Shown here: positions 36,647 through 64,000 of the stretch, in pieces
Position numbering within the stretch: position 1 is the stretch's first letter
Layout of the letters: every line of letters starts with the position of its first letter
Assembly: GCF_045037415.1 (NCBI RefSeq)
Contig: NZ_CP173438.1
DNA: 64,000 nucleotides
Source of the DNA: Escherichia coli
GTDB taxonomy: Bacteria; Pseudomonadota; Gammaproteobacteria; Enterobacterales; Enterobacteriaceae
Strand: one strand, 5' to 3'
Notes under the pieces: model-generated
Databases searched by the model: none
What the model saw: only the letters and a program-made list of their open reading frames with translations
Told to the model about the DNA's origin: nothing
Translations under genes and position numbers: made by a program

Positions 36647-36686
36647 ATTCACCTCATTGTGAAAAATAAAAAACCTGCCTGGCTAT

Positions 36687-36815: not shown

Positions 36816-36839
36816 AAAAAAAGGGAGCGATATGCTCCC
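36816..36839 (-). terminator. Rho-independent terminator downstream of the sucD-like gene
   Basis: Minus strand: hairpin gggagc-atatc-gctccc followed by an 8-T run. Confidence 0.6.
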
Positions 36840-36857
36840 TTGATATTCATTTATGGA

Positions 36858-37730: not shown

Positions 37731-37742
37731 CTTAACCTCCTG

Positions 37743-38912: not shown

Positions 38913-38933
38913 ATATTCCCTCAGTGGTGTGTG

Positions 38934-40352
38934 TTATCCGTGTAATGCTTTATTATTCAAGGCCATTGCTGCTTCGTGGATGACTTCGCTTAATGTCGGA
39001 TGCGCATGGATCGCACAGGCAATATCCTCGCCAGAGGCGCTAAAAGTCATCGCCAGCGCAATTTCATTAATCAGCTCCGATGCCTGCGGGCCAACAATCG
39101 CTCCGCCAAGTACGCGGTCAGTGTGTTTATCACTGTATAACGTGCAACGCCCACCTTCCTGGCCTAATGCTAAGGCGCGACCGTTACCGGCAAACAGAGA
39201 ATTTCCTTTGTTAAAGACTCTGCCAGCGGCTTTCAGTGAGGCCTCGTTTTCCCCTACCCACGCAACTTCCGGTTGGGTGTAAATCACCGAAGGGATCAGC
39301 GCAAAATTAATCGGCTCTACCACCAGTCCGGCAATTTGATCAGCCACCACTACACCTTCAGCCATCGCTTTATGCGCCAGCATCGGCCCTCGCACGACAT
39401 CACCAATTGCCCACAGCCCGGCTTTCCCGGTACGGCATAAGTTATCGACGGCAATACCGCCACGGTTATCGGCTTCAAGACCGAGTTGCACGAGATCGAC
39501 ACCAGAAAGTCGCGGTACACGTCCAATGGCAAGAATTAATTTATCGAAGCGGCTTTCTTCTCGCTTCTCACCCTGCCGCCAGCGCACATGCACACCGTCA
39601 TCCCGTTGTTCAATAGCCTCAATCTCTACTGCCAGTTGCATTTTCATCCCACTGGCAATCATTGCTTTACGGACTTCGTTCGACAGGCGAGCTTCCAGTG
39701 CAGGCAAGAACGTTGGCGCCATCTCCAGCAACGTGACGTCTGAACCAACCCGATTCCACACAGACCCCAGTTCAAGGCCAATCACGCCAGCGCCGATCAC
39801 ACCGAGACGCGGCGGCACTTCGCTCAATGCCAGGGCGCCACGATTGTCGAGGATCTGTTGATTATCAATGGTAACGCCAGGCAGCTGACGCGGCTGAGAA
39901 CCTGTTGCAATCACTACATTACGGGCGTGAAGGTGTTGATCGTTTACACGTAATTGCCAAATCTCATCCTGAGCACATTCTAACGTTGCGAGGCCGCACA
40001 GGTGCTTCACTTTATTTTTCTTAAACAGCAAGCTGATGCCCATTGTCAGGCGGCTTACTATGGCGTCTTTACGTTGAATCATCGCAGCTGCATTGAAAGA
40101 TACGCCGTCAACATTAACGCCATGAATGCTCGCCTCATGCTGCACTTGCGCGTACAGTTCGGAAGATTGCAGCAACGATTTTGACGGAATACAGCCGACA
40201 TTGAGACACGTACCGCCCGGCGAAGGTTCGCCCTGTGCATTAACACCATCATCAATACATACTACGGAAAGCCCATTCTGCGCAGCCCGCAGTGCCGCTA
40301 CGTAACCACCTGGCCCCCCCCCCATAACTGCCACATCAAAAATTGTACTCAT
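38934..40352 (-). CDS. Dihydrolipoyl dehydrogenase (E3) paralogue
   Basis: 472-aa ORF with FAD fold GGGPGGYVAA and redox-active disulfide GGTCLNVGCIPSK. Confidence 0.88.
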   Translation of the reverse strand: MSTIFDVAVMGGGPGGYVAALRAAQNGLSVVCIDDGVNAQGEPSPGGTCLNVGCIPSKSLLQSSELYAQVQHEASIHGVNVDGVSFNAAAMIQRKDAIVSRLTMGISLLFKKNKVKHLCGLATLECAQDEIWQLRVNDQHLHARNVVIATGSQPRQLPGVTIDNQQILDNRGALALSEVPPRLGVIGAGVIGLELGSVWNRVGSDVTLLEMAPTFLPALEARLSNEVRKAMIASGMKMQLAVEIEAIEQRDDGVHVRWRQGEKREESRFDKLILAIGRVPRLSGVDLVQLGLEADNRGGIAVDNLCRTGKAGLWAIGDVVRGPMLAHKAMAEGVVVADQIAGLVVEPINFALIPSVIYTQPEVAWVGENEASLKAAGRVFNKGNSLFAGNGRALALGQEGGRCTLYSDKHTDRVLGGAIVGPQASELINEIALAMTFSASGEDIACAIHAHPTLSEVIHEAAMALNNKALHG

Positions 40353-40363
40353 CGGCGCCCTCC

Positions 40364-41518
40364 TTAAAGATCCAGCAACAGTTGTTCCGGTGATTCCAGT
40401 AGCTCACGTATTGCCACCAATGTATGCACGGCTTCCTGACCATCGATAATGCGATGGTCATAGCTGAGAGCAAGGTACATCATGGGACGAATAACAACCT
40501 GACCGTTTTCTGCGACCGGGCGCGGCGTGATGGCATGCATCCCAAGAATGGCCGACTGCGGCGGGTTAATGATTGGCGTTGACATCATCGAACCAAAAGT
40601 ACCGCCGTTGGTGATAGAGAACGTGCCGCCCTGTAACGCCTCCAGCGGCAATTTGCCATTGCGTGCCTGTGTGGCGTATTCGGCAATTTGCCGTTCAATT
40701 TCCACCAAAGAGAGTGATTGCGCATTGCGTAACACAGGCACTACCAGGCCGCGGTTGCTGCTCACTGCAATGCCGATATCGCAATAATCACGCCAGATAA
40801 TCTCGTTGCCATCGACGCTGGCATTCACTACAGGGAAGCGCTCCAGCGCCCGGGTAACGGCCTTAACAAAGAAGGACATAAAGCCCAGCTTCACGCCGTG
40901 CTTCTCGGCAAAACGATCTTTCCAGCGGGCGCGTAAGTCCATCACGCTCTGCATGTTTACTTCGTTGAATGTGGTAAGAATGGCGTTATTTTGTTGGGAA
41001 GCCAGCAGACGCTCAGCAATTCGCTGACGTAAGCGCGACATCGGCTCACGACGTTCCTGACGAGCACCCGGTGTCAAGGGTTTAGCTGGCGCGATCTCCG
41101 CCACCCGTTCAGGCTGAATGGCTGGTGCAGGAGTAACGCGCTGCACATCCTCTTTCAGGATACGTCCATTTCTCCCGCTCCCCGCAACGTCAGCAAGTTC
41201 GACACCACTACGCTGTGCCTCCAGCCGTGCGGAAGGCATCGCCAGGGTTTCGGTGACTGGTGTGACGGTTTCTTCTATGACAGCTTGCGGCTTAAGATGC
41301 GCCAACAGTTGCGCGGACGTGACCGTGCTACCTTCGCTGACGATAATATTGCTTAACACGCCATCGTGCGGGGCCGGTATTTCCAGAATGACTTTATCGG
41401 TTTCCAGCTCGGCAATCACATCATCGCGTTTTACGTGCTCGCCTTCTTGTTTACACCAGGTTGTCAGCGTGCCTTCCGTGACAGATTCCGGTAATACAGG
41501 GACAGTAATTTCGATCAT
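40364..41518 (-). CDS. Dihydrolipoamide succinyltransferase (E2) paralogue
   Basis: 384-aa ORF with N-terminal lipoyl domain (ETDKV lipoyl-lysine motif) and C-terminal catalytic motif DHRIIDG. Confidence 0.88.
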
Positions 41519-41550
41519 AAAATGTTCTCCTTATTATTTTTGTGCGCCTT

Positions 41551-44295
41551 TCATGGCTGAATATCTGCAAACGCAGCAGCAAGAAATTCGTCGATTTGTT
41601 GTTTATGTACACGCCCATACCCTGTCGCTGGTGCTGCCGCTGCCGGGCGGCCTGCATACTGCCAGTAAGGAGTGTTAATTTTCAGTGCCGCCAGCTCATG
41701 ACGAATCTGCCGCCACGCGCCCTGGTTTTCTGGCTCTTCCTGCAACCAAATCCATTCGCAGCAGTTCGGCCAACTCGCCAGAACATCATTCAGTTCTGCG
41801 ACCGGGAACGGGTAGAGTTGCTCCAGGCGAACAATCGCTACCTCGTCTTCATGCTCACGCTGCTTACGGGCTTCCAGTACGTCGTAATAGACCTGGCCGC
41901 TACACAAAATAACGCGCTTAACTTTCTGGGACTGATGCAATTGCGGATCGGTGATTACCGGTTTATAAGCGTCATCAGTGAATTCACAAAGCTCGCTCAT
42001 CGCGCCTTTAAACCGAAGTAAACGCTTACTCATCATTATCACTAACGGTTTGCGCATTGGGCGTAATGCCTGACCGCGCAACAAATGGAACATTTGTGCT
42101 GACTCACTGGGCATCACCACCTGCATGTTGTTTTCTGCGCACAGTTGCAGCCAGCGCTCAGGACGTGCGGAAGAGTGCTCCGGCCCTTGTCCGTCATAGC
42201 CATGCGGCAGAAGAATGGTTAAACCGCTATAGCGATCCCACTTGGTTTCGCCAGACGAGATAAATTGGTCAATAGCAACCTGAGCGCCGTTGGCAAAGTC
42301 ACCAAACTGTGCTTCCCAAATAACCAGTTGCTGAGGCGCAGACGTTGAATAGCCATATTCAAAGGCTAAGAGCGCTTCTTCATTAAGCACCGAATCATAA
42401 ACATCGAAAGATGCCTGACCAGCGCGGATATGCTGTAACGGCAGATAACGACGGGCTTCCGTTTGATGATGTACCACTGCATGGCGATGACTGAACGTGC
42501 CACGCCCTGAGTCTTCACCAGAAAGACGCACACCAACACCCGCATCCACAAGCGATGCATAGGCCAGCATTTCAGCCATTCCCCAGTCTACTGGCTGAGT
42601 ACCTGCGGCCATATCCTGGCGTAACGCCAGTTGCCGTTTAATGGTAGGATGTGCGACCACATCGGGTGGCAGTGTAGAAATGATTTCACCATACGCTGCC
42701 AGCTTTTGCCGAGGCAATGCCGTAGATACCGGGGCGCTCCAGTGAGGGTTGGTCAACCCATACCAGTTAGCGCTAAAAGAGTGAATTGCAGGTTTGAGAG
42801 GCTGCGGTTCACGTTTCTGGCAGCTATCCAGCCAGTCGCGATAGCGTGCCGTCATCTCATCTTGTTGCGCCTGAGTTAACAGGCCGCGGCGGGCAAGAGA
42901 TTCACCATAACGGGCGAGCGTACCAGGGTGAGCATCCACTGCCTGATACATTTGTGGCTGGGTAAGACGTGGCTCATCGCTTTCGTTGTGTCCGTGCTTA
43001 CGGAAGCAGCAAATATCGATGATGATGTCACGCCGGAAGGTGTCTCGCCATTCGCACGCCAGTTCCATTACCTGGCAAACAGCGTCAACGTCATCGCCAT
43101 TAACGTGGATAATTGGGGCCGCTACCATTTTGGCAATATCGGTGCAGTACCGTGAAGAACGCATATCCTGCAAGCGGGAAGTGGTGAAGCCAATCTGATT
43201 GTTAATCACCAGATGTAGCGTACCGCCAGTGCCGTAGCCCTGAGTCTGCGATAAGTTAAACGTGGTTTGGTTGACGCCGAGGCCGCCCAACGCGGAATCC
43301 CCATGAATAAGTACGCCCACCACTTTTGCCTGACCATCCTCACCACGGCGTTCCTGCCTGGCTCGCACCTGGCCCAGCACCACCGGATTCACGATCTCCA
43401 GATGTGAGGGGTTATACGCCAGCGCCACATGCAGCGAACCGGCAGGTGTTTCCAGATTGCTGGAATACCCCATGTGGTATTTCACATCGCCTGAACCACT
43501 GCCGATCGTCTGCTTGCCTTCAAACTCAGCAAAAAGCTGTGCCGGGTCTTTATTCAACAGATTAACCAGAACATTAAGTCTTCCCCGGTGCGCCATGCCA
43601 ATGACCATTTCCTCCACACCTTGCGCACGCAGGCGTTTTGTCAGCGTATCGAGCGCCGGGATTGCACTTTCGCCCCCTTCCAGAGAAAACCGTTTCTGCC
43701 CAACATAACGGGTATGCAGATAACGCTCTAACGTCTCTGCCGCCATCAGTTTTTCAAAACGAGCAATACAGGTTTGGGCATCAGCTTGTGGCGCATTGCT
43801 GCTCTCAATCCGTGATAACAACCAGTTGATTTCTTCACGATTTTCCAGATGAGCAAGTTCATAAGCCTGGCTACTGGCCCAGGCTTGCTCCAGCAGGTTA
43901 AGCAGTTGCTTAAGTGGCATTTGCGTGGTGTGTGCGCCAAAGGTGACGCTAAACTCCTGCAACAAGTCTTCTTCGCTTAATCCCCAAAAACCAGGCTGGA
44001 GGGAGGGAACGTCAGCCGGGGGATTCAAACCAAGTGGATCAAGCTTTGCGCGCAGATGCCCCTGCGTGCGCCAGGCATTGATCAGTTGTATTACCGCAGC
44101 CTGTTTTTTTAAGGTCGCACCGCTGATATTGTTATCACCGGATACGCTTTGGACAGTCAGTTCAGGTGAAAGAAAAAAACGCCGCCAGTCTTCCGGGAGT
44201 TGTTCCGGCGTACGCAACCAGGTCTGGTAGTACTCTTCAAGCCAGGTCGCGTTATCTCCACTAAGCAGCGTGCCGGGCGAGGTCATGTTCTCCAT
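41551..44295 (-). CDS. 2-Oxoglutarate dehydrogenase E1 component paralogue
   Basis: Long ORF with E1o/TPP-binding similarity; start placed at ATG 44295 (MENMTSPG, SD AGGAG 6 nt upstream) rather than the ORF-track start 44418. Confidence 0.85.
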   Translation of the reverse strand: MENMTSPGTLLSGDNATWLEEYYQTWLRTPEQLPEDWRRFFLSPELTVQSVSGDNNISGATLKKQAAVIQLINAWRTQGHLRAKLDPLGLNPPADVPSLQPGFWGLSEEDLLQEFSVTFGAHTTQMPLKQLLNLLEQAWASSQAYELAHLENREEINWLLSRIESSNAPQADAQTCIARFEKLMAAETLERYLHTRYVGQKRFSLEGGESAIPALDTLTKRLRAQGVEEMVIGMAHRGRLNVLVNLLNKDPAQLFAEFEGKQTIGSGSGDVKYHMGYSSNLETPAGSLHVALAYNPSHLEIVNPVVLGQVRARQERRGEDGQAKVVGVLIHGDSALGGLGVNQTTFNLSQTQGYGTGGTLHLVINNQIGFTTSRLQDMRSSRYCTDIAKMVAAPIIHVNGDDVDAVCQVMELACEWRDTFRRDIIIDICCFRKHGHNESDEPRLTQPQMYQAVDAHPGTLARYGESLARRGLLTQAQQDEMTARYRDWLDSCQKREPQPLKPAIHSFSANWYGLTNPHWSAPVSTALPRQKLAAYGEIISTLPPDVVAHPTIKRQLALRQDMAAGTQPVDWGMAEMLAYASLVDAGVGVRLSGEDSGRGTFSHRHAVVHHQTEARRYLPLQHIRAGQASFDVYDSVLNEEALLAFEYGYSTSAPQQLVIWEAQFGDFANGAQVAIDQFISSGETKWDRYSGLTILLPHGYDGQGPEHSSARPERWLQLCAENNMQVVMPSESAQMFHLLRGQALRPMRKPLVIMMSKRLLRFKGAMSELCEFTDDAYKPVITDPQLHQSQKVKRVILCSGQVYYDVLEARKQREHEDEVAIVRLEQLYPFPVAELNDVLASWPNCCEWIWLQEEPENQGAWRQIRHELAALKINTPYWQYAGRPAAAAPATGYGRVHKQQIDEFLAAAFADIQP

Positions 44296-44330
44296 GTTTT
44301 TCTCCTGATGGTCATAGACAGCTGCATTAC

Positions 44331-44346
44331 TGCACAATCCGTACCA
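44331..44346 (-). promoter_or_regulatory. Candidate sigma-54 (-24/-12) promoter for the 2-oxoglutarate dehydrogenase / succinyl-CoA synthetase operon
   Basis: Minus strand reads TGGTAC-GGATT-GTGCA with GG-N10-GC spacing, ~36 bp upstream of the proposed E1 start. Confidence 0.45.
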
Positions 44347-44476
44347 ACAGTTAAAAACACTAATTTTCAAAAACTTATAGAAAAGAGATGATGTAAAAGT
44401 GGGCGAAAAAAGGGACAAAATAGTAGGGAGTGGCTGGAGTCAGGAACAGGCGGAGAGATCCGCCTGTTGATTAAAA

Positions 44477-45751: not shown

Positions 45752-46780
45752 TCAGTCGGGAAGTTGGCGAAGAATTTGCTCCACTCGCTCTTGCAGTGGC
45801 CCCGAAACCGAAAGATAAGGAATGTTCCTGCGCGACAATTCCTGTTCATACCACACCTGTTGCCGTGCGCGAAATACCTCTCCTTGCCGGGTGCCATCCT
45901 GCACGAAGGGAAATTCTGCGCCGCAAAGCACTACCAGAGAGTATTCCCGCTCCGCCAGTTGGTGAAGTTCTTGCGGAGCATGACCATATTGATCAAGGGC
46001 ATAGAATAAGGTCGTGAGTGGCGACGTGTCACATATAAGATAGTGATTAGCTTCTGCTTGTTGTTCCCGGCGTACCTGTTCGCAGGCGATATGCAACAAA
46101 TCATCCGCAGTTAAGATACCGTTTTTTTCTTCCCAATAGTCGCGGCCAAATTCAGCGACATACACCGTATCAAGCACGCCCGCCAGCGCTTTTGAAAGCG
46201 TGCTTTTACCGGTAGATTCGCCACCAAGCAGACAGATACGGCGAACGAAACTGTAATAAACATCATTCGCCAACATGTAGCGATAGCGGTGAACATCGGA
46301 ACGAATAAGCGTTCCCGAAGGCGCTTCATCGCCAACTGGGCGCGCCATTCGAACGTGTTCAACGGGTTGGGCAAAACGCCGCGCCAGCACGTTAGCAAAG
46401 CCATCGCCATAGTCTTCTGCAGTAAATACAGCGTGTGGGCGGCAACGTAATATCTGCAAGCATAGCGTCGCCACATAATGACGGTGGATGTCGGCATCAG
46501 CATTGTTATGCGGGATAGCAGGTAAGTTATAACGCGCAACAAGCTCTGGCGTCAGTACCAAAAACGTCGCTTGCGGGAAGCGCACTTGCAGCCACGTCAG
46601 GCGCTTTTCAGGTTCACAGTCAGGCATTTCCGGCACGGAATAACTGATGATGAACAGTTCTTCACATTGCGCCAGTGCGGTATTGATCAACTTTTCATGA
46701 CCACAATGCAAAGGCGCGAATTTACCAACCACCAGACCCGTTGCAAAAGGCTTCATGATGTTTGCAACTCTTTGCGCCAT
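45752..46780 (-). CDS. NadR-like bifunctional NMN adenylyltransferase / ribosylnicotinamide kinase (no N-terminal HTH)
   Basis: Nucleotidyltransferase motif GKFAPLHCGHEKLI near N-terminus and P-loop GGESTGKSTL in the C-terminal half; alternative coupled start at 46756 (ATGA overlap with pnuC-like stop). Confidence 0.7.
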   Translation of the reverse strand: MAQRVANIMKPFATGLVVGKFAPLHCGHEKLINTALAQCEELFIISYSVPEMPDCEPEKRLTWLQVRFPQATFLVLTPELVARYNLPAIPHNNADADIHRHYVATLCLQILRCRPHAVFTAEDYGDGFANVLARRFAQPVEHVRMARPVGDEAPSGTLIRSDVHRYRYMLANDVYYSFVRRICLLGGESTGKSTLSKALAGVLDTVYVAEFGRDYWEEKNGILTADDLLHIACEQVRREQQAEANHYLICDTSPLTTLFYALDQYGHAPQELHQLAEREYSLVVLCGAEFPFVQDGTRQGEVFRARQQVWYEQELSRRNIPYLSVSGPLQERVEQILRQLPD

Positions 46781-47310
46781 TGATACAAACCATACCAGGC
46801 GTTAATCCAGAACAGGAAATATAAGCCAGCGGTCAGGTTTAAACCGCGCGTCATATACAGTGGCACCGCCAGGGTATTCACCGCTAACCAGACGTACCAG
46901 TTTTCGATACGTCTTCCCATCAACATGAATTGTGCCAGAACGCTGAAGGTCAAAATCAACGAATCCAGCCAGGGTGCCCAAGCATTGGTAAAGGTGTGGA
47001 GTAAAAAGCCGTAACCGCCTGCCACGACGACAGCACAGAGCAACAAAAGGAAAAAGTGACTGGCTTGCGTTCGGCGCACCGGCAAGATGTCGCCACCCTG
47101 ACCTTTCAGCCAGTGGATCCAGCCAGTGATGCTGGTCACGATGAAGAATAACTGGAGCGTAACGTCGGCATAGAGTTGCACGGACCAAAAAACCCAGCCG
47201 TACAATATGCTGCCAATTATGCCGATCCACCATGTATGCACATTGTTTCTGGCAGCCAGCCAGACGGAAACCGCGTATGCCAGACACGCGGCGATTTCTG
47301 AATAAGACAT
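46753..47310 (-). CDS. PnuC-family nicotinamide riboside transporter
   Basis: 185-aa polytopic ORF with tryptophan-rich PnuC-like segments; directly upstream of and overlapping the NadR-like gene. Confidence 0.7.
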   Translation of the reverse strand: MSYSEIAACLAYAVSVWLAARNNVHTWWIGIIGSILYGWVFWSVQLYADVTLQLFFIVTSITGWIHWLKGQGGDILPVRRTQASHFFLLLLCAVVVAGGYGFLLHTFTNAWAPWLDSLILTFSVLAQFMLMGRRIENWYVWLAVNTLAVPLYMTRGLNLTAGLYFLFWINAWYGLYQWRKELQTS

Positions 47311-49952: not shown

Positions 49953-50987
49953 TTAACGCCCCCGCTTTCCGGTGGAAGCGCGAATTTGCAGGGTCGGGCG
50001 ATAGATGTAATGGCTGAGCGGTGCGTCTGGTTGCGCAATACGCCGTAAAATTTGCTGCGCCGCCTGTTTCCCCAGAGCCAATGGTTCTACCGCAATTGTG
50101 GTTAACGGCGGGTTACTGTAAGCACAAGCCGCCACGCCATCATTACCAATCAACGAAATATCTTCCCCGGCAAATAATCCTCTTTCGCCTAGTGCCGACT
50201 CCGCGCCAAAAGCCATTAAATCGTTATAACAAATCACCGCTGTGGGTGGCGAAGGCATATCCAACAGCTGTTGCATCAACTGGTAGCCGTTGGCCTGAGT
50301 CGGTTCAGCACGCAGCGAAAAAGCATCAGTACTCCACGGCTGTAAACCATGGTGATTCATCGCCTCAAGGTATCCCTGATAACGCATATGGTGCGTAAGA
50401 CCACCAATAAACACGATATCTCTGTGCCCTTGTTGAATGAGATATTCCGTCGCTTCCCGTACACCTGCGTGGCTGTCCACGCCAACGTAATCGACGGGCA
50501 ATTGTTGCCAATCCAGAGGGCGCATCGTGATTAATAAGGGTGTGGAACTGTTGGCATAACGCTGTAAATCGGCTTCTGAGGTACTGTTCACTGGACAGAG
50601 GACAATGCCCGCGACGTGGTGTTCCAGCAAGGTATCAAGCACCTGTTTTTGCCGGTCACTACGCTGGGAGGTATTGGACATCACGGTGATAAAACCGTGC
50701 TCCGCCAGCGTCATCTCAAGACCCATAGTAAATTCAGCGAAGAAAGGATTTATCAAATCGTCAATGACTACGCCGATAGTTAGCGATTTTTGCGAACGCA
50801 GATTGGCAGCAAAACGGTTATAGACATAGCCTAATTGTTCAATGGCTTGCTGGACTTTTTGTTGCGTCTCTTTTTTGATAAGTGAACTGTCGTTGAGAAC
50901 CAGCGATACAGTCGATTTCGAAACGCCAGCCGCACGCGCAACATCGGTTAATGTTACCCGCTTTCTTCCTGTATCCGACTTCGCCAT
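49953..50987 (-). CDS. LacI-family transcriptional regulator
   Basis: Start at MAKSDTGRKRVTLTDVARAAGVSKSTVSLVLN (HTH), then periplasmic-binding-protein-like sugar-binding fold; divergent from the adjacent operon. Confidence 0.85.
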   Translation of the reverse strand: MAKSDTGRKRVTLTDVARAAGVSKSTVSLVLNDSSLIKKETQQKVQQAIEQLGYVYNRFAANLRSQKSLTIGVVIDDLINPFFAEFTMGLEMTLAEHGFITVMSNTSQRSDRQKQVLDTLLEHHVAGIVLCPVNSTSEADLQRYANSSTPLLITMRPLDWQQLPVDYVGVDSHAGVREATEYLIQQGHRDIVFIGGLTHHMRYQGYLEAMNHHGLQPWSTDAFSLRAEPTQANGYQLMQQLLDMPSPPTAVICYNDLMAFGAESALGERGLFAGEDISLIGNDGVAACAYSNPPLTTIAVEPLALGKQAAQQILRRIAQPDAPLSHYIYRPTLQIRASTGKRGR

Positions 50988-51242
50988 GCCTGCTCCAAAC
51001 CCCCATAAGATCAAGGCAATTACTTTATCATAATCTCCTTTTACTCATGCGATCCGTTAACGCAAGGGATCGCAGGAGATCGTCGTTTCGATCACAGATT
51101 CGCACTTCCCTTGTTGTGTTTTTTACACCCTAATCGTACAAATTACGCATAAATTAGATCGTTCCAATTAATTTATGAAAATTATCATATTGTTTTAAAT
51201 GTATATTTTTAATTATTTTTATATCGAAACAAGGAAATTATT

Positions 51243-52814
51243 ATGTGCTCTGTACGCACGATCACTGCACCGGAAGCTGCAGATTTGATTGTTGATGGCG
51301 CAGTTGTCACCGTCTCCTCCTCCAGTGGAATGGGGTGTCCGGATGCGGTGCTGGCAGCAATAGGTGAACGCTTTCAACGTGCCGGACATCCGCAAAACAT
51401 CACCTCCATCCACCCTATCGCCGCTGGTGATATGTATGGCGTAAAAGGCATCGATCATCTGGCGCAACCGGGCTTACTGGCAAAAGTGATCGCTGGCTCC
51501 TACCCCTCCGGTCCATCATCAATGACGCCTCCGTTAATCTGGCAAATGATCAATGACAACGCGATCCCCGCCTGGAATCTGCCTTCCGGGATCTTATTTG
51601 ATATGCACCGGGAAGCGGCGGCTCATCGTCCTGGCGTGCTGACACAAACAGGCATGGATACCTATGTGGATCCCCTGTTGCAGGGCGGTGCAATGAATGA
51701 AAAAGCGGCGCAACAATCTCTGGTTGAACGTGTTCGATTTGCTAACGACGACTGGCTGTTTTTCCCCAGTATCGTGCCGCAGGTGGCGATCATTCGCGCT
51801 ACCACTGCCGATGAACGCGGCAACCTGACTTATGAACATGAAGGGGCTTATCTGGGGCCACTGGAACAGGCTACTGCCGTTCGCAATAATGGTGGCATCA
51901 TAATTGCGCAAGTAAAACGACAGGTTGCCGCCGGAAGTCTGAAACCAAAAGAGGTGCGTATTCCGGGTGTACTGGTGGATTACATCGTGATTGCGCCGGA
52001 ACAAACACAAACGACACAAACGCAATATGAACCTGCCATTTCCGGCGAAATCAGTCGTCCGCTGTCAGCCTTTCGTTATATGGAACATGGCCCGGCGCGA
52101 GTTATTGCCCAGCGAGTCGCGCAAGAACTACAAAGTGGAGATGCGGTAAATATTGGCTTTGGTATTTCTGCCAACGTACCACGCATTTTACTGGAACAAG
52201 GTCGCCACGGTGACGTCACCTGGCTGCTGGAACAGGGCGCGATTGGCGGAGTTCCACTGCTGGAATTTCAGTTCGGTTGTGCCTCTAATGCAGAAGCATT
52301 TTTGCCCTCTCCCCAGCAGTTCACCTATTTCCAGGGTGGTGGTTTTGATCTCACTCTGATGTCGTTTTTACAAATCGGCGCAGATGGCTCAGTGAACGTC
52401 TCACATCTCCCCGCTCGTCCACATGTCACTGCCGGATGCGGTGGATTTATTGATATCACCTCACATGCGAAACGCATTATTTTCTCTGGCTTTTTCAATG
52501 CCGGTGCCCAACTGCAACTGGAAGAGGGTCAGCTGCGTATCATTAAAGAAGGCAAAGCCAAAAAACTGGTACAGGACGTCGCCCACGTGACGTTCTCCGG
52601 CAAACGCGCAATAAGACTCGGGCAACAAGTACAGTACATTACTGAACGCTGCGTTCTGGAATTAACCCCAGACGGGCTACTGGTCACAGAAATTGCCCCA
52701 GGTATTGATCCTGAACGCGACATTCTCGCCCAAAGCGATGCCCCACTCCGTCTGGCAGACGATCTCAAACTAATGAATCCCCTCTATTTTCAACAAGGAA
52801 GTCACCATGAATAA
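51243..52814 (+). CDS. CoA-transferase-like protein (acyl-CoA:carboxylate CoA-transferase or acetyl-CoA hydrolase/transferase superfamily)
   Basis: 523-aa soluble ORF with two-domain organisation resembling fused CoA transferases; family assignment by eye only; SD AAGGAA upstream. Confidence 0.55.
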   Translation: MCSVRTITAPEAADLIVDGAVVTVSSSSGMGCPDAVLAAIGERFQRAGHPQNITSIHPIAAGDMYGVKGIDHLAQPGLLAKVIAGSYPSGPSSMTPPLIWQMINDNAIPAWNLPSGILFDMHREAAAHRPGVLTQTGMDTYVDPLLQGGAMNEKAAQQSLVERVRFANDDWLFFPSIVPQVAIIRATTADERGNLTYEHEGAYLGPLEQATAVRNNGGIIIAQVKRQVAAGSLKPKEVRIPGVLVDYIVIAPEQTQTTQTQYEPAISGEISRPLSAFRYMEHGPARVIAQRVAQELQSGDAVNIGFGISANVPRILLEQGRHGDVTWLLEQGAIGGVPLLEFQFGCASNAEAFLPSPQQFTYFQGGGFDLTLMSFLQIGADGSVNVSHLPARPHVTAGCGGFIDITSHAKRIIFSGFFNAGAQLQLEEGQLRIIKEGKAKKLVQDVAHVTFSGKRAIRLGQQVQYITERCVLELTPDGLLVTEIAPGIDPERDILAQSDAPLRLADDLKLMNPLYFQQGSHHE

Positions 52815-53586
52815 CGGCACCATTGACCTCCAGCGCAACGGTTTCATTGCCACTTTGGTGATTAATCGCCCGGCGAAACTCAACGCATTAACCCCAGAGA
52901 TGCTCGAACAACTGCTGGCGCATTGCCACACGTTGGAAACTGATTCGGAGATCCGCGTAGTACTGCTGACCAGTGCCAGTGAAAAAGCGTTTTGTGTCGG
53001 CGCGGATATTCATCGCTGGACCTCTCTTTCTGCACTCGATATGTGGCGCAACTGGATCCGCCGCGGTCATCAGGCATTTGATGCTCTGGCACAACTGCCA
53101 CAGCCCGTAATCGCCCTGTTGCACGGCCTGGCTTATGGCGGTGGTCTGGAACTGGCTGCTACCGCCGATATCCGTATTTGTAGCGCCGAAGCACAAATGG
53201 CACTACCAGAAACCGGGCTGGCGACAGTGCCTGGCTGGTCAGGAACGCAGCGGCTGACGGCACTGCTTGGGCGCTCACTGGTGAAAGAACTGGTATTTAC
53301 CGGTGAACCACTGGATGCACAGCGGGCACTGTCCTGCGGGCTGGTGAATCGCGTTGTCGCCAGGGAGGCGTTACACGACGCCGGACTGCAACTGGCACAA
53401 CGTATCGCCCAGCGTGCTCCCGTTGCAGTGCAGATCGCCAAGCAGGTTATTGATGCCGGAGAAGGTATTGCTGTGGCCTCGACGCTTGAAGCACTGGCTG
53501 GCGCTTTTTCCGCCACGACTGAAGATGCTCATGAAGGCAGTCAGGCATTTACTGAGAAGCGTCAACCGCACTTTCAGGCACGCTGA
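52807..53586 (+). CDS. Enoyl-CoA hydratase/isomerase (crotonase-fold) family enzyme
   Basis: 259-aa ORF with crotonase patterns (LNALTPEM, oxyanion-hole region FCVGADI, GLAYGGGLELA); 8-bp overlap with upstream gene. Confidence 0.8.
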   Translation: MNNGTIDLQRNGFIATLVINRPAKLNALTPEMLEQLLAHCHTLETDSEIRVVLLTSASEKAFCVGADIHRWTSLSALDMWRNWIRRGHQAFDALAQLPQPVIALLHGLAYGGGLELAATADIRICSAEAQMALPETGLATVPGWSGTQRLTALLGRSLVKELVFTGEPLDAQRALSCGLVNRVVAREALHDAGLQLAQRIAQRAPVAVQIAKQVIDAGEGIAVASTLEALAGAFSATTEDAHEGSQAFTEKRQPHFQAR

Positions 53587-53612
53587 TCGCCTCTTACAAG
53601 GAAAGAAAGATA

Positions 53613-54893
53613 ATGAATATGACAACCTCTGTTCCCCAAACGCCTTCTTTATTTCGGCGAATAATGACAAAACTCGCGGCCTTTGCACCTGGCATCTTTC
53701 TTATTGGCTACAGCATCGGAACAGGCAGCATCACCACTATGGCTAAAGCAGGTGCTAACTATGGTGTCTCGCTCATGTGGGCCGTGGCGCTTTCTTGCAT
53801 TGTTACCTGGTTTTTAATCCGTATTTATGGTCGTTATGCTTCCGTCACTGGTGAACGCGCGTTGACTGCATTTCGTCGCCATATCCATCCCGGCGTTGCG
53901 ATGTTGTTTCTGATCGGGTTAACCGTTGCCGTGAGCGGTTCCATTATGGGGGTAATGGGTATTCTGGCGGATGTAATGGCAACATGGTCCACGACCTGGT
54001 TTAGTGGCGGTATCTCAGCTCTCGCCTGGGCTATCGCGATGGTCATTATGATTAACGTGATGCTCTGGACCAACAGCAACGCCGGGTTCGACAAAATCCT
54101 CTCCGCGCTGGTTGGCATTATGGGGCTGGCGTTTGTGATTAATTTTTTCATTATGATGCCGCCGGTCGCAGATCTGCTGGCCGGATTTATTCCGTCTGTT
54201 CCCGATCCTGTCGCTGGCGATAACAGTACGCCATTTCTGATAATTTCTGGCATGGTGGGTACCACCGTAGCACCAGCAATGTTTCTTATGCGCACGACCC
54301 TGGTAAAAAGTAATGGTTGGGGTGTGGACAATTTGCCTCATCAAAATCGTGATGCCATTGTCAGTGCAGGAATGATGTTCATCATCAGTGCGGCGGTGAT
54401 GGCTGCGGCTGCGGGTACGTTGTACCAAACTGGCACAGGTTTAAATAATGCCTCGCAAATGGTCATTATTCTCGAACCTATTGCTGGCTCAGCTGCCGTG
54501 GGGCTCTTTGTTATTGGTATTGTTGCAGCCGGGCTTTCCAGCCAGTTCCCAAATTTGCTGTTAACGCCCTGGCTGCTGGCTGACTGGCGTGATACCAGCA
54601 ACGAAGTTAGCCCAGGTTACCGTATCCTGATGACGGTTATGTCTCTGCTTTGTCTGGTTGTGCCGCTGTTCCACGCACGCCCGGTATTGGTGATGATTGC
54701 CAGCCAGGCCTTTAACGCCATTATTCTGCCGCTGACTGTTTTATGTATGTTCTGGCTGGCGAACAAGCCTTCGTTAATGGGCAAATATCGTTGCTCACGC
54801 TGGGAAAACGTCATGTTTATTGCCATAAGCGTATTTACGCTAATCATGGGCTATATGGCAATGAGCGGCTTAATCGAAAGTCTGATGAAATAG
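53613..54893 (+). CDS. NRAMP-fold membrane transporter, divergent (canonical metal-binding motif not conserved)
   Basis: 426-aa polytopic ORF whose N-terminal helices align in pattern with MntH, but the DPGN motif position reads IGTGS. Confidence 0.55.
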   Translation: MNMTTSVPQTPSLFRRIMTKLAAFAPGIFLIGYSIGTGSITTMAKAGANYGVSLMWAVALSCIVTWFLIRIYGRYASVTGERALTAFRRHIHPGVAMLFLIGLTVAVSGSIMGVMGILADVMATWSTTWFSGGISALAWAIAMVIMINVMLWTNSNAGFDKILSALVGIMGLAFVINFFIMMPPVADLLAGFIPSVPDPVAGDNSTPFLIISGMVGTTVAPAMFLMRTTLVKSNGWGVDNLPHQNRDAIVSAGMMFIISAAVMAAAAGTLYQTGTGLNNASQMVIILEPIAGSAAVGLFVIGIVAAGLSSQFPNLLLTPWLLADWRDTSNEVSPGYRILMTVMSLLCLVVPLFHARPVLVMIASQAFNAIILPLTVLCMFWLANKPSLMGKYRCSRWENVMFIAISVFTLIMGYMAMSGLIESLMK

Positions 54894-54903
54894 GTGGGAC
54901 GCA

Positions 54904-56940
54904 ATGATTGACGAAACGCTAACGGCGCTCACTGATATCAAAATGCCCCATTACGCACCGCTGGCTCAAGCCAGCGGTAGTATCGACCTTAACGGTACCA
55001 TTTTACCAGAGTACTGCTGCAACACGCTGGTTCTGGGCAGTGGCGCGGCAGGATGGCGAGCTGCCGTCGAGCTGAAACGGCAAAATGTCGATGTAATGGT
55101 CGCCTCCAGCAAAGCCTTCTGGGGCACTTCCGCCTGTTCTGGTTCCGATAAACAAACGCTTCACACCGCGAATACGCGTGCAAATGGTGACCATTTTCTG
55201 ACATTAAGTAACACCCTGGCGGCAGGTGGTGCGATGGATCATGACACCGCATATGTTGAGGCGGTCGGATCGGTGAACACCTGTGAAGTACTGAAATATC
55301 TGGGTCTGGATCTGCCTGAAGATCTCTTTGGCGCAACGTTGCGTTATCAAACCGATCACGATGAATTTGGCCGTGCCACTAGCTGCGGTCCTCGAACATC
55401 GCGCCTGATGGTGAAGGTGCTGGCCCAGGAGGCAATGCGCCTTAATATTCCTCTTTGCGATCACACAACGGCGATTCATATCCTGACCAGTGGTGAAGGG
55501 GAAAATCGACGAGTCGTGGGGGTGATCGCCATCGATAAAGCCTGTCGGGATAATCCCTGGCGAATGGTCGTGATTCGCTGCCAGCATCTGGTTTTAGCCA
55601 CGGGCGGACCAGGTGAACTTTATCGTGACAGTGTTTATCCGGTGAACTGTTTTAGTGCGTTGGGCATGGCACTGGAAGCAGGTATAACTCTGGTTAATCT
55701 TACGGAAAGTCAGTTTGGTATCGGTACACCGCGCAGCCAGTTTCCGTGGAATCTTTCCGGTACTTACATGCAGGCGATGCCGCGCATCTATTCGCAGGAC
55801 CACTCCGGGCGTCAGTATAATTTTCTGGCAGCTTATTACCCCACGACTCGTATGCTGGCCTCCGCAATATTTCGTAAAGGTTACCAGTGGCCGTTTCACG
55901 CGGAACGAATGCTGGAATATGGCTCCAGCCTGCTGGATGTCGCAGTTTATGAAGAGACTCAAAAAGGGCGCGATGTTTTTCTTGATTTTCTACGGGAACC
56001 AGAACCCGCAGCGGACGGAACGTCATTCAACCTGCAAGAACTGGATGATGATGTCATCGACTATCTGCAACAAAATCACGCCCTGTTGGCACAACCGCTG
56101 GCGAGATTAACACAGATGAATCCTCTGGCTATTCGTTTGTATCAGATGCACGGTCATGATCTCACAGCCTCACCGCTCAAGTTTACGCTAAATAATCAAC
56201 ATCTTAATGGCGGAATTGAAGTTGATATTTGGGGACGTACATCGCTAACTGGTTGTTATGCTGCCGGAGAAAATGCCGGAACACATGGTGTCACGCGCCC
56301 AGGTGGAGCAGCGCTCAATGCCGGGCAAGTTTTCGCCCGCCGCTGTGCATTACATATTGCTCATCAGAAAAGCCAGGACCGGCCTCTCGAGAGGCAACAA
56401 ATTCTCAGTACGATTAATGAGGCGCAACAGTACCTGAATCAGGGGCTGCTACGTGACGACGTGCGAGAAACGATACAAAATACCATGAGCCACCATGCCG
56501 CAATTTTGTGTCATACACAGGGGATCAACACTGCCGCGCAAACCCTGGCAACACTTTGTGAAGATATTCGCCGGGAAGGTATTCAATGCGATGAAAACAG
56601 CCTGGCACAATCTTTCCAGTGGCGGCAAAGTGCGCAACTGGCGCTGGCTGTACTGCGTTCTTTACAATGTTATGTCGAAAACGGTGGTGGGAGTCGTGGT
56701 GCCAGGGCTATCTATGATGGCGAAGCCGGTATTGCACCGCAAACACCAGGTGGGCCACTCCTGGCCTGGCGTTTTCGGCCAGAAAATCAGGATGCCAGGC
56801 AATATATGATTTGTGTTTGTCGGGAAGCTAATGATTACCAAACCTGGACTCGCCCGTGCCGTGAACGGGGCGTATTAACGCTAACCAACTTTGAGCGCCA
56901 GTGGCAAAACTGGATTGCGGCGACGCCGTTTCAATACTGA
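54904..56940 (+). CDS. FAD-dependent oxidoreductase, fumarate reductase / succinate dehydrogenase flavoprotein-like
   Basis: N-terminal dinucleotide fold LVLGSGAAGWRAA and C-terminal GCYAAGENAGTHGVTRPGGAALNAG motif typical of the FRD/SDH/aspartate-oxidase flavoprotein family; 678 aa. Confidence 0.7.
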   Translation: MIDETLTALTDIKMPHYAPLAQASGSIDLNGTILPEYCCNTLVLGSGAAGWRAAVELKRQNVDVMVASSKAFWGTSACSGSDKQTLHTANTRANGDHFLTLSNTLAAGGAMDHDTAYVEAVGSVNTCEVLKYLGLDLPEDLFGATLRYQTDHDEFGRATSCGPRTSRLMVKVLAQEAMRLNIPLCDHTTAIHILTSGEGENRRVVGVIAIDKACRDNPWRMVVIRCQHLVLATGGPGELYRDSVYPVNCFSALGMALEAGITLVNLTESQFGIGTPRSQFPWNLSGTYMQAMPRIYSQDHSGRQYNFLAAYYPTTRMLASAIFRKGYQWPFHAERMLEYGSSLLDVAVYEETQKGRDVFLDFLREPEPAADGTSFNLQELDDDVIDYLQQNHALLAQPLARLTQMNPLAIRLYQMHGHDLTASPLKFTLNNQHLNGGIEVDIWGRTSLTGCYAAGENAGTHGVTRPGGAALNAGQVFARRCALHIAHQKSQDRPLERQQILSTINEAQQYLNQGLLRDDVRETIQNTMSHHAAILCHTQGINTAAQTLATLCEDIRREGIQCDENSLAQSFQWRQSAQLALAVLRSLQCYVENGGGSRGARAIYDGEAGIAPQTPGGPLLAWRFRPENQDARQYMICVCREANDYQTWTRPCRERGVLTLTNFERQWQNWIAATPFQY

Positions 56941-59720: not shown

Positions 59721-60236
59721 ATGGAAAAGACCACAACGCAGGAGTTATTAGCGCAGGCTGAAAAAATCTGCGCACAGCGTAATGTGCGCCTGACCCCACA
59801 GCGTCTCGAAGTGTTGCGCCTGATGAGTCTGCAGGATGGCGCTATCAGCGCTTATGATCTGCTTGATTTGCTGCGCGAAGCTGAACCGCAAGCCAAGCCG
59901 CCAACGGTTTATCGCGCGCTGGAGTTTCTGCTTGAACAAGGTTTTGTGCATAAGGTGGAATCCACCAACAGTTATGTGCTCTGTCATCTGTTCGATCAGC
60001 CCACCCATACTTCAGCCATGTTTATTTGCGATCGCTGCGGCGCGGTGAAAGAAGAATGTGCTGAAGGCGTGGAAGACATCATGCATACGCTGGCGGCAAA
60101 AATGGGTTTTGCCCTGCGGCATAATGTTATTGAAGCACATGGATTATGTTCAGCATGTGTAGAAGTAGAAGCGTGTCGTCATCCTGAACAGTGCCATCAT
60201 GACCACTCTATTCAGGTGAAAAAGAAACCTCGCTAA
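59721..60236 (+). CDS. zur: Zinc uptake regulator (Fur family)
   Basis: 171 aa from MEKTTTQELLAQAEKICAQRNVRLTPQRLEVL with C-terminal Cys/His cluster; ORF-track start lies 57 codons upstream. Confidence 0.93.
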   Translation: MEKTTTQELLAQAEKICAQRNVRLTPQRLEVLRLMSLQDGAISAYDLLDLLREAEPQAKPPTVYRALEFLLEQGFVHKVESTNSYVLCHLFDQPTHTSAMFICDRCGAVKEECAEGVEDIMHTLAAKMGFALRHNVIEAHGLCSACVEVEACRHPEQCHHDHSIQVKKKPR

Positions 60237-60277
60237 AAGGGTGTACATCCTTGTACATGTCGGGCAGGAGGGATTAA

Positions 60278-60487
60278 TTACCAGCGGTAATCATGGCGTT
60301 TTTCCCAACTATCAACCTCTTTTTCTGCCTGATCTTTCTGATAACCGTAGCGTTCCTGGATTTTACCCACTAACTGATCACGTTTTCCTTCAATGATCGT
60401 CATATCATCATCGGTCAGTTTGCCCCATTGCTCTTTCACTTTACCTTTAAACTGTTTCCAGTTACCGCCGGCTTCATCTTTATTCAT
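60278..60487 (-). CDS. yjbJ: CsbD-family stress protein YjbJ
   Basis: 69 aa from MNKDEAGGNWKQFKGKVKEQWGKLTDDD. Confidence 0.85.
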   Translation of the reverse strand: MNKDEAGGNWKQFKGKVKEQWGKLTDDDMTIIEGKRDQLVGKIQERYGYQKDQAEKEVDSWEKRHDYRW

Positions 60488-60602
60488 AATCAAGACCTCA
60501 TCGTTAGGTTGTGAATGAGAGTACGTTCACTTTTCTTCTGAACGTGAGATTAAGTGTAGTCAGCAATTTGGCTTAGGATTATTTATTCAGAATTTTTAAC
60601 CG

Positions 60603-61982
60603 TCACGTTGCGACAAACCAGGTATCGTTACGCCAGTGACGCCGCCAGATAGCCGCCAGAGAAAGCCCGCGTAACGCCAGAAAGACGGTTAACGCCAGCC
60701 ACAAACCATGATTCCCCAGCCACGGCAGCGTAAGGAGCGTCAGTGCAAAACCTGCGGCGGCCACCGCCATACTGTTACGCATTTCGGCGGCACGCGTTGC
60801 GCCTATAAACATGCCGTCCAGCAGATAACACCAGACGCCGACCAACGGCAAAATCACCTGCCAGATAAGATAGCGGTCAGCCAGCTGCTGAATCTGGGTT
60901 AACGACGTCAGCAACGCAATGATGTGTTCCCCTGCCAGCAAATAAACCACCGAAAACAGTAACGCTACGATCCCCGACTGGCGGCACGCTGCCCGCCAGA
61001 CATCCAGCAATTGACTACCGTCGCGCGCACCGTATGCCTGACCGGAATGTGCTTCAACCGCGTAGGCAAAACCATCCAGCGCATAGGCGGTAAAGGTGAG
61101 TAGCGTCATCAGAACCGCGTTAACAGCGATAATGTCACTCCCCAGTCGCGCGCCAAGTACAGTGATCGCGCCGAAACAGAGTTGCAGCAACAGCGAGCGC
61201 AGCATGATATCGCGGTTAAGCGCCAGCAAGTGACGGAAGTTTCCTCGCCAGGCTGTTTTCAGCATTTCGCCGGAGATTCCGCGTAGTTTGAGAATTTTAC
61301 GCACCATTAGCAGACCAATCAGCAATGTTGCATATTCCGCAATAACCGTCGCCAGAGCCGCGCCCTGCACGTTCATATGCAGCCCCATCACCAGCCAGAC
61401 ATCCAGCACAATGTTGAGGATATTGCCGACCACTAACAAAATTACTGGCGCACGGGCATATTGCACGCCGAGTAACCAGCCAAGTAATACCAGATTCGCC
61501 AGCGACGCCGGTGCGCTTAACCAGCGGATTTCAAGAAAGCGTCGCGCCTGTTCCAGGACTGCTTCACTACCACCAACAATATGCAGCGCCAGATCGATAA
61601 TCGGCGTACGCAGCAGCGCAATTAACGCCCCGGCCCCCAACGCCAACAGCAACGGTTGCACCAGCGCACGGGCTAATGCCTGAGGATTTTTGGCACCATA
61701 AGCCTGTGCAGTCAGCCCGGTGGTGCTCATGCGTAAAAACAGCAACAACATAAAGAGAAAGCTGGTCGCCGTTGCACCAACCGCCACGCCGCCTAAATAA
61801 ACCGGACTATCAAGATGACCAATTACCGCCGTATCGACCAGTCCCAGCAACGGAACGGTGATATTGGAGAAAATCATGGGTAAGGCGAGATGCCAGAGTG
61901 CTTTATCAGATGAAGTGAGGAATGCCATGCAGACAAGCCTGATGAAGAGAGATGAAAAACAAACCGCGACGCCAGGCGGCAT
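60603..61982 (-). CDS. dinF: MATE-family efflux protein DinF (SOS-inducible, co-transcribed with lexA)
   Basis: 459-aa polytopic ORF directly downstream of lexA on the same strand. Confidence 0.9.
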   Translation of the reverse strand: MPPGVAVCFSSLFIRLVCMAFLTSSDKALWHLALPMIFSNITVPLLGLVDTAVIGHLDSPVYLGGVAVGATATSFLFMLLLFLRMSTTGLTAQAYGAKNPQALARALVQPLLLALGAGALIALLRTPIIDLALHIVGGSEAVLEQARRFLEIRWLSAPASLANLVLLGWLLGVQYARAPVILLVVGNILNIVLDVWLVMGLHMNVQGAALATVIAEYATLLIGLLMVRKILKLRGISGEMLKTAWRGNFRHLLALNRDIMLRSLLLQLCFGAITVLGARLGSDIIAVNAVLMTLLTFTAYALDGFAYAVEAHSGQAYGARDGSQLLDVWRAACRQSGIVALLFSVVYLLAGEHIIALLTSLTQIQQLADRYLIWQVILPLVGVWCYLLDGMFIGATRAAEMRNSMAVAAAGFALTLLTLPWLGNHGLWLALTVFLALRGLSLAAIWRRHWRNDTWFVAT

Positions 61983-61999
61983 CGCGGTTCAGAGATATG

Positions 62000-62608
62000 T
62001 TACAGCCAGTCGCCGTTGCGAATAACCCCAACCGCCAGCCCCTCAATGGTGAAGCTCTGCTGACGAAGGTCAACGACAATTGGTTTAAACTCGCTGTTTT
62101 CTGGCAACAGTTCGACTTTATTGCCCTGTTTTTTCAGGCGTTTAACGGTAACTTCGTCATCAATACGTGCGACAACGACCTGACCGTTACGTACATCCTG
62201 AGTTTTATGCACTGCCAGCAAATCGCCATCCATAATGCCGATATCTTTCATCGACATCCCGCTGACACGCAGCAGGAAATCAGCATTCGGCTTGAACAAG
62301 GAAGGATCGACCTGATAATGACCTTCAATATGCTGTTGCGCCAGAAGCGGTTCACCGGCAGCCACACGACCTACCAGCGGCAACCCTTCTTCCTCTTCCT
62401 GCAATAAACGAATCCCGCGTGATGCGCCGGAAACAATTTCAATAACGCCTTTGCGTGCCAGCGCCTTCAGATGTTCTTCAGCCGCGTTTGGGGAACGGAA
62501 CCCCAAACGCTGCGCGATTTCCGCACGCGTCGGCGGCATACCTGTCTGGCTGATGTGATCACGGATGAGATCAAACACCTCTTGTTGCCTGGCCGTTAAC
62601 GCTTTCAT
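62000..62608 (-). CDS. lexA: SOS repressor LexA
   Basis: 202-aa [42 protein letters not shown] with Ser-Lys peptidase domain. Confidence 0.98.
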
Positions 62609-62616
62609 TCCGCCCC

Positions 62617-62653
62617 CTGGGTGTATATACAGTTATGCTGTGAGTATATACAG
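62617..62653. promoter_or_regulatory. Two tandem LexA boxes in the lexA promoter
   Basis: CTGGGTGTATATACAG (62617-62632) and CTGTGAGTATATACAG (62638-62653) just upstream of the lexA start. Confidence 0.9.
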
Positions 62654-62717
62654 CAAAAGGCGATTTTGGAACCATAAACTGCACAATAAACCAGAGATTT
62701 ATCGAAATCTGGAAGGG

Positions 62718-63086
62718 TTATCCAAAATGCGACCATAACAGGATGCACCAGGTAATCACGGCGACGATAATGGCAATCAGCACTGCGGCAGATCCCATAT
62801 CTTTAGCGCGTCCGGAAAGCTCATGGTATTCAGAGCCAATTCGGTCAACCACAGCTTCGATGGCGCTATTGAGAATTTCCACAATCATCACCAGCATCAC
62901 GGAGCTGATAAGCAGCACGCGGGTAATCGCGTCCACATCCAGCCAGCAGGCGATAACCACCGCTAACAATACCGCTACGCCTTCCTGACGGAATGCCGCT
63001 TCGTTGATCCATGCAGCGCGTAAACCTTTCCAGGAATAGCCAGCAGCTTTAATAATTCGGATGAATCCAGTGGTATTATTGGCCAT
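62718..63086 (-). CDS. dgkA: Diacylglycerol kinase
   Basis: 122-aa three-TM ORF MANNTTGFIRIIKAAGYSWKGLRAAWINEAAFRQEG. Confidence 0.95.
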   Translation of the reverse strand: MANNTTGFIRIIKAAGYSWKGLRAAWINEAAFRQEGVAVLLAVVIACWLDVDAITRVLLISSVMLVMIVEILNSAIEAVVDRIGSEYHELSGRAKDMGSAAVLIAIIVAVITWCILLWSHFG

Positions 63087-63256
63087 TGAAAGAACCTTTT
63101 TACATTATGAGCGTCAATATCAGTGTACCGTTAAATCCGATGATTCGGGTTTGCGTAACGCCGCGCGAAACATGAGCGGATACCACAGAATTTCCCATGA
63201 CTTTCTGCTATCCTTGCCGCGCATTTGCATTATTAACCAGAGGCTTTACATCGTTT

Positions 63257-64000
63257 ATGTCCGGCTGGCCACGAATTTACTACAAATTACTGAATTTACC
63301 ATTAAGCATCCTGGTAAAAAGCAAGTCTATTCCGGCGGATCCTGCCCCGGAACTGGGGCTGGATACCTCTCGTCCAATTATGTACGTTTTACCGTACAAC
63401 TCGAAAGCTGACTTGCTGACGTTGCGCGCCCAGTGTCTGGCACATGACCTGCCTGACCCGTTAGAACCGCTGGAAATCGACGGCACGCTACTGCCGCGCT
63501 ATGTGTTCATTCACGGCGGGCCGCGTGTGTTCACCTATTACACGCCGAAAGAAGAGTCTATTAAGCTGTTCCACGACTATCTCGATTTGCACCGCAGCAA
63601 CCCAAATCTGGATGTGCAGATGGTGCCAGTATCGGTGATGTTTGGTCGCGCGCCGGGGCGTGAAAAAGGCGAAGTGAACCCGCCGCTGCGTATGCTTAAC
63701 GGCGTACAGAAATTTTTCGCTGTACTGTGGCTCGGTCGCGACAGTTTTGTGCGTTTCTCGCCGTCAGTTTCACTGCGCCGTATGGCGGATGAACACGGCA
63801 CGGATAAAACTATCGCTCAGAAACTGGCGCGCGTGGCGCGTATGCACTTTGCCCGTCAACGTCTGGCTGCCGTGGGTCCACGTCTGCCTGCTCGTCAGGA
63901 TCTGTTTAATAAGCTGCTCGCCTCCCGCGCCATTGCGAAAGCGGTAGAAGATGAAGCACGCAGCAAAAAAATCTCCCATGAAAAAGCGCAGCAGAACGCG
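63257..64000 (+). CDS. plsB: Glycerol-3-phosphate acyltransferase, 5' portion (runs off window end)
   Basis: Frame open from ATG 63257 to the window edge, translating [36 protein letters not shown]; absent from the ORF track because no stop lies in the window. Confidence 0.9.

Follow-up and report, generated by a model that had tools for sequence, protein, structure and literature searches.

The 64,000-nucleotide stretch of Escherichia coli DNA analysed here (contig NZ_CP173438.1 of RefSeq assembly GCF_045037415.1; called the window below, with position 1 its first letter) almost certainly carries the chromosomal E. coli lexA-dinF operon with its tandem autoregulatory operator and, at a second place, a single LexA box common to uvrA and ssb, which are divergent. 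The range from 60603 to 62653, whose limits are the dinF stop codon and the outer edge of the 16-nt core of the box more distant from lexA, had been described in an original prediction, made from the letters of the sequence, as a canonical SOS (DNA damage response) core with intact operators: two well-formed LexA boxes at lexA, dinF following lexA, and a third box in the ssb/uvrA divergent region. The genes and sites on which the argument depends are as follows:

lexA, 62000–62608, minus strand: 202 amino acid (aa) LexA repressor
dinF, 60603–61928, minus strand: 441 aa MATE transporter (its program-made open reading frame (ORF) extends to 61982)
Distal LexA box, TGCTGTATATACTCACAGCA, 62636–62655 (16-nt core 62638–62653), minus strand: 27 nt upstream of the lexA ATG
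Proximal LexA box, AACTGTATATACACCCAGGG, 62615–62634 (16-nt core 62617–62632), minus strand: 6 nt upstream of the lexA ATG
Putative lexA promoter, 62643–62671, minus strand: −35 TTCCAA at 62671–62666, 17-nt spacer, −10 TATACT at 62648–62643
Shared uvrA/ssb LexA box, TACTGTATATTCATTCAGGT, 26065–26084, no strand assigned: between the divergent ssb and uvrA genes
uvrA, 26168–28990, plus strand: matches equivalog NF001503 at 1628 bits (cutoff 1147)
ssb, 25377–25913, minus strand: matches NF006533 at 360 bits (cutoff 260); named ssb1 in matching genomes

LexA boxes in the window

The whole 64 kb window was scanned with a symmetrised log-odds position weight matrix (PWM) made from 17 E. coli K-12 boxes (the 18 in Table 4 of PMC3009722, with the lexA row dropped); the uvrA/ssb and proximal lexA boxes are absent from that table, so the matrix is independent of the sites under test. 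The three highest-scoring sites in the window are the distal lexA box (19.3 bits), the proximal lexA box (18.2 bits) and the uvrA/ssb box (17.6 bits), and a gap of about 5 bits separates them from the sites ranked fourth to sixth (12.8, 12.0 and 10.4 bits). Leave-one-out scoring of the training boxes gave 6.4–28.3 bits with a median of 20.2, and by this range, inside which they all fall, the three window sites are ordinary mid-strength boxes. The best score in 300 dinucleotide-preserving shuffles of the window averaged 11.9 bits (standard deviation 2.4, 95th percentile 16.5), and a score of 17.5 bits or more was reached by any site in only 5 of the 300, as compared with three such sites in the window itself. 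Heterology indices computed from the same 17-site table are 6.4 for the distal lexA box, 8.0 for the proximal lexA box and 8.2 for the uvrA/ssb box, and 11.3–13.4 for the sites ranked fourth to sixth; published indices are of the same order (lexA 7.4, uvrA/ssb 6.2; PMC11228462). All three sites have the CTG-N10-CAG frame with an AT-rich interior, depart from the 20-nt consensus TACTG(TA)5CAGTA at 5, 6 and 5 positions, and have scores above chance and like those of validated boxes. The two boxes predicted at lexA are therefore where they were said to be and occupy ranks 1 and 2 of the very scan that had been proposed as a check, the box predicted at 26065–26084 occupies rank 3 (17.6–19.3 bits for the three, against 12.8 for the next site), and dinF does follow lexA, toward lower coordinates, both genes being on the minus strand.

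The minus-strand sequence upstream of lexA, read through both boxes, is GGTTCCAAAATCGCCTTTTGCTGTATATACTCACAGCATAACTGTATATACACCCAGGGGGCGGAATG, and the centres of the two boxes are 21 bp apart. The distal box is the same as the K-12 lexA box in Table 4 of PMC3009722, and the proximal box is the same as that of MG1655 and is kept across the Enterobacteriaceae. The gaps between the two boxes and the lexA ATG equal those of Salmonella, 6 and 27 nt (PMC8072944). As the sequence reads, the −10 TATACT sits within the distal box, and GGTTCCAAAAT, the −35 region, is at least 90% conserved in a cross-genus alignment. The −35/−10 assignment follows the promoter of K-12 lexA in the literature, and from a promoter so placed the proximal box would span the first ~20 transcribed bases and reach the ribosome-binding site.

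Measured to the start codons, the shared box is at a distance of 83 nt from uvrA and 151 nt from ssb. It has been described as having a heterology index of 6.98, overlapping the uvrA −35 and acting on just one of the three ssb promoters, the most distal (PMC9505508), and a box so placed should make uvrA moderately and ssb weakly SOS-inducible. The inductions measured after azidothymidine (AZT) treatment, 3.9-fold for uvrA and 1.5-fold for ssb (and 1.8-fold for lexA; PMC11228462), fit this placement.

The repressor that would act at these sites matches the TIGR00498 equivalog over residues 1–199 at 289.5 bits (cutoff 110.95), so that a curated full-length model, with the N-terminal DNA-binding domain and the C-terminal S24 domain, places it in the LexA class above its cutoff. 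It is a full-length match to the E. coli LexA structures 1JHH, 3JSO and 7B5G (E ~1e-129), and also matches 3JSP and 3K3R; the Ala84-Gly85 scissile bond and the Ser119/Lys156 catalytic dyad are both present. Since the K-12 protein, which has been studied by experiment, is 100% identical to it, we infer that it would bind operators and undergo RecA-stimulated self-cleavage.

Could the three boxes simply be chance matches to a short AT-rich palindrome, with no regulatory role? Minimal motifs are indeed common in this DNA: CTG-N10-CAG occurs 28 times in the window as against 14.5 times expected from shuffles (most occurrences have G+C-rich interiors, and the excess probably reflects how often CTG and CAG codons are used, not LexA boxes), and the single CTGT-N8-ACAG match is equalled or exceeded in 49 of 100 shuffles. 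These motifs are not specific and were therefore replaced by the full matrix, by which the three sites reach scores rarely seen in shuffles (5 of 300, above). However, the three sites also all lie in promoter regions of known SOS genes, their sequences are the same as those of experimentally defined K-12 boxes, and they are kept in genera whose intergenic DNA around the boxes has diverged (below); the chance explanation, to which we give next to no probability, is effectively refuted. A different proposal would add to the operators rather than remove them, namely that a weak third LexA site, CTGGTTTATTGTGCAG (62679–62694, minus strand, 41 bp from the distal box), aids cooperative repression. 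This site has the CTG-N10-CAG frame, an AT-rich interior and a spacing to the distal box of about four helical turns, and at 7.0 bits scores higher than the weakest training box, that of polB (6.4 bits), but its score is far under the mean chance best, and it overlaps the 3' arm and T-tract of a terminator-like hairpin of dgkA (the gene upstream of lexA), of which the T-tract is kept in Klebsiella, Raoultella, Kluyvera and Citrobacter while the CTG or CAG triplets are not. On its score, its overlap with the dgkA hairpin and its non-conserved CTG...CAG we reject 62679–62694 as a LexA site, and a part for it in repression seems extremely unlikely.

The sites ranked fourth to sixth by the matrix were likewise rejected. 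The site at 17961–17980 (12.8 bits) is inside a LysR-family gene, and the best chance score averages 11.9 bits; that at 11777–11796, TATTGTTTTTCACGACAGTA, between the divergent nrfA and acs genes, combines one perfect LexA half-site with a score, 12.0 bits, equal to the chance maximum, and is probably non-functional; and that at 30391–30410 (10.4 bits) is inside aphA and falls below the mean chance best.

Conservation of the operators and comparison with K-12 and Salmonella

All but one of the 5426 complete E. coli genomes (5425) contain the 2.8 kb surrounding lexA, which is 100% identical to several chromosomes. For a 60-nt query that spans the tandem operator, 5336 of the 5425 E. coli records are exact matches and the other 89 differ by 1–3 bases, counts in which local-alignment trimming may hide a few terminal mismatches. 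The window's allele of a uvrA/ssb 50-mer is found in 704 genomes; the other 4697 matching records, K-12 with a single difference among them, differ from it by one or two bases.

Conservation beyond E. coli was measured by scanning one genome per species for the pattern CTGTATAT-N5-CAG-N5-CTGTATAT-N5-CAG, for which ~0.03 random matches are expected, a seeded scan that gauges the depth of conservation and not its breadth. At least 120 loci carry this tandem-operator pattern, nearly all of them in Enterobacteriaceae, with a few in Budviciaceae (Budvicia, Pragia) and Pasteurellaceae (Bisgaardia, Pasteurella). Among the 120 loci listed, the tandem operator lies 7–17 nt before an ORF for a LexA homologue (67–100% identity) in 117, the other 3 having too little downstream DNA, and the whole 37-nt operator string is the same as the window's in 104. 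When the upstream regions were aligned across genera, a conserved block extends from GGTTCCAAAAT (the −35 region) through both boxes to the ATG, and the DNA further upstream has diverged.

The K-12 lexA-dinF operon (b4043-b4044) is identical to that of the window in gene order, strand relationship, LexA protein, both operators, −35/−10 and ribosome-binding region. In MG1655 the sequence from the −35 to the lexA ATG is the same, and the sole difference in the intergenic region upstream of lexA is A/T at 62707, far upstream; there are 10 synonymous differences from MG1655 within lexA, and DinF has 7 amino acid differences from its K-12 counterpart. The intercistronic hairpin discussed below is also the same in K-12, except that its foot is one base shorter in the window (CTGAACCGCG, vs CTGAGACCGCG in K-12). 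In the ssb/uvrA region the 20-nt box and its distances to both starts are again those of K-12, which differs from the window in having C, not T, at 26085, the base just 3' outside the box; the window has one extra A in the A-run by the ssb start, and the 254-nt intergenic region is otherwise identical. Salmonella enterica is similar in having a lexA with two boxes and dinF downstream of it, and its uvrA and ssb likewise have one box in common (heterology index 6.99; PMC8072944), but the linker between its two lexA boxes differs by one base (CATGA, vs CATAA in the window) and its lexA-dinF spacer is 179 nt long and contains repetitive extragenic palindromic (REP)-like palindromes where Escherichia has a single hairpin.

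lexA, dinF and the hairpin between them

The mechanism by which LexA autoregulates lexA is established for K-12, and the locus in the window would be expected to work in the same way. LexA dimers would bind the two boxes, whose centre-to-centre distance is about two helical turns, and LexA on the distal box (over the −10) and on the proximal box (in the early transcribed region) would block RNA polymerase and so repress both lexA and dinF. Once DNA is damaged, LexA would be stimulated by RecA filaments on single-stranded DNA to cleave itself at Ala84-Gly85 by means of the Ser119/Lys156 dyad, this cleavage would lift repression, and fresh LexA would re-close the loop. dinF would be made by read-through from the lexA promoter, and for part of the transcripts an intercistronic hairpin with a U-tract is probably a terminator or a stabiliser, which would leave the level of dinF below that of lexA.

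The physical arrangement agrees with such read-through. dinF comes next after lexA, on the same strand and across a spacer of 71 nt, and the PWM finds no match between 60603 and 62614 (the lexA ATG to the end of dinF), so dinF is without a box of its own. The spacer contains the following element:

lexA-dinF stem-loop, 61951–61991 with its tail (hairpin 61991–61960), minus strand: terminator-like, with a 13–14 bp stem and a 4-nt loop, followed by UUUGUUUUU

The hairpin begins about 9 nt past the lexA stop codon, a terminator scan assigns it 14 pairs of which 8 are G-C, and its fold of −27.6 kcal/mol (z = −4.5) is matched by none of 200 shuffles. A hairpin of −14 kcal/mol or lower (median −18) is present, as 50 distinct sequences, in every one of the 55 lexA-dinF spacers examined, and in the short spacers it usually begins 9–17 nt past the lexA stop codon. 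A T-rich tail is present on 23 of the 55 hairpins; Escherichia and Kluyvera are among the genera that have a U-tract, and the spacers of Citrobacter and Salmonella have REP-like palindromes. The lexA-dinF stem-loop is kept in structure, not in sequence, across genera. A search of 60200–63300 against Rfam gave a sole match, Chlorobi-RRM, whose 22.8 bits are under the gathering score of 45 and which we ascribe to chance, and a literature search found no paper that discusses a lexA-dinF terminator.

The hairpin bears on where dinF starts. The gene is annotated with 459 aa in MG1655, from an ATG (61982 in the window) that lies within the 5' arm of the hairpin, and with 441 aa by the Prokaryotic Genome Annotation Pipeline (PGAP), from the ATG at 61928. 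The 441 aa start appears better supported, since the DinF equivalog profile NF007690 (441 positions; 909.5 bits, cutoff 409) fits the short form from its first residue (residues 1–440 on profile positions 1–440) and since the in-frame N-terminal extension is not conserved, being missing in E. albertii and most genera. We see an even chance that the hairpin serves as a partial terminator or 3' stabiliser that fixes a low dinF to lexA ratio and so decouples resynthesis of the repressor from that of the transporter; the 459 aa start would then be wrong, its ATG being buried in the 5' arm of the hairpin, and the 441 aa start would be the real one.

If the hairpin were instead an efficient terminator, lexA and dinF might be separate units, with dinF transcribed from its own, LexA-independent promoter. 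The strength of the hairpin, its position so close to the lexA stop codon and its presence in all of the spacers examined (above) speak for such an arrangement, and dinF is not directly 3' of lexA in ~19 of the 74 listed loci that hold enough DNA to tell. However, dinF came to light through its inducibility by DNA damage and is regarded as forming a single operon with lexA (PMC3327717), and upon SOS induction RNA polymerase occupancy goes up across the two genes together (PMC3739934). A simple sigma-70 scan of the minus strand finds nothing promoter-like from the hairpin to the dinF ATG, and the absence of a T-rich tail from all but 23 of the 55 hairpins means that most are not classical terminators. 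We consider separate transcription of lexA and dinF very unlikely, and prefer to view them as a single LexA-controlled operon.

Several points nonetheless weigh against the lexA-dinF operon with a tandem autoregulatory operator as we have described it. The hairpin is terminator-like, and little read-through could reach dinF. The K-12 literature and sequence identity with K-12 are the basis on which operator occupancy, co-transcription and the transcription start are assigned to the window. The simple sigma-70 consensus scan missed both the lexA and the uvrA promoters, in the lexA case because the −35 fits the consensus at only 3 of 6 positions, and the promoter positions given here are therefore putative ones derived from reading of the sequence, conservation and the literature. 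Finally, the cross-species pattern was seeded from the window's own motif and recovers only lineages that keep its 22 specified bases.

Genomic context

The remaining features of the lexA neighbourhood, and the three regions of the window that are absent from K-12, are as follows:

dgkA, 62718–63086, minus strand: upstream of lexA on the same strand
plsB, start at ~63258: divergent to dgkA and lexA
KguS/KguR alpha-ketoglutarate island, 30902–44418: between aphA and tyrB, not in K-12
nadR-like ATPase and pnuC-like transporter genes, 45752–47310: between tyrB and alr, non-K-12 insertion
Genes for a LacI-family regulator, CoA-transferase, enoyl-CoA hydratase, Nramp transporter and FAD-dependent oxidoreductase (flavoprotein), 49953–56940: between dnaB and qor, non-K-12 insertion

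RefSeq annotation of a matching strain gives the same gene names around lexA. The uvrA/ssb box is ~36.5 kb from lexA in the window; the corresponding distance in MG1655 is presumably ~17 kb, and it is the three insertions that make the window's distance longer. The PWM scan finds no LexA-like site above 8.8 bits in any of the three, and they do not interrupt the SOS genes. The KguS/KguR and alpha-ketoglutarate utilisation genes are c5032-c5041 of the uropathogenic E. coli (UPEC) strain CFT073 (PMC3694859), and the chromosome is UPEC/B2-like, not K-12-like. The strain that matches best at the lexA region has a 13 kb integrase/insertion sequence (IS) island between yjcB and ssb, a region that in the window is without it.

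The claim that the arrangement is the canonical and expected one holds well, in that LexA and the −35-to-ATG region are the same as in MG1655 and the uvrA/ssb 20-mer is the same as in K-12. The term "SOS core" is a generous one, since the repressor half of the system is present but recA lies outside the window, and the statement that the backbone is E. coli-like and intact is correct for the SOS genes but should not be taken to mean K-12-like, given the three insertions between the SOS loci. The system is already known, here in its textbook wild-type form, and nothing is added to knowledge of the SOS response. The value of the analysis is one of quality control: the window is a genuine, undisrupted E. 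coli chromosome with a wild-type SOS repressor circuit, and a strain with such a circuit should show normal LexA autoregulation and normal uvrA induction. For annotators, the conserved lexA-dinF hairpin and the evidence for the shorter dinF start are small by-products.

At the other end of the window, a cluster of ABC-transporter genes occupies positions 1–3300, to the left of yjcO, and the first 6 kb is covered to at least 80% in just 741 of the 5426 complete E. coli genomes.

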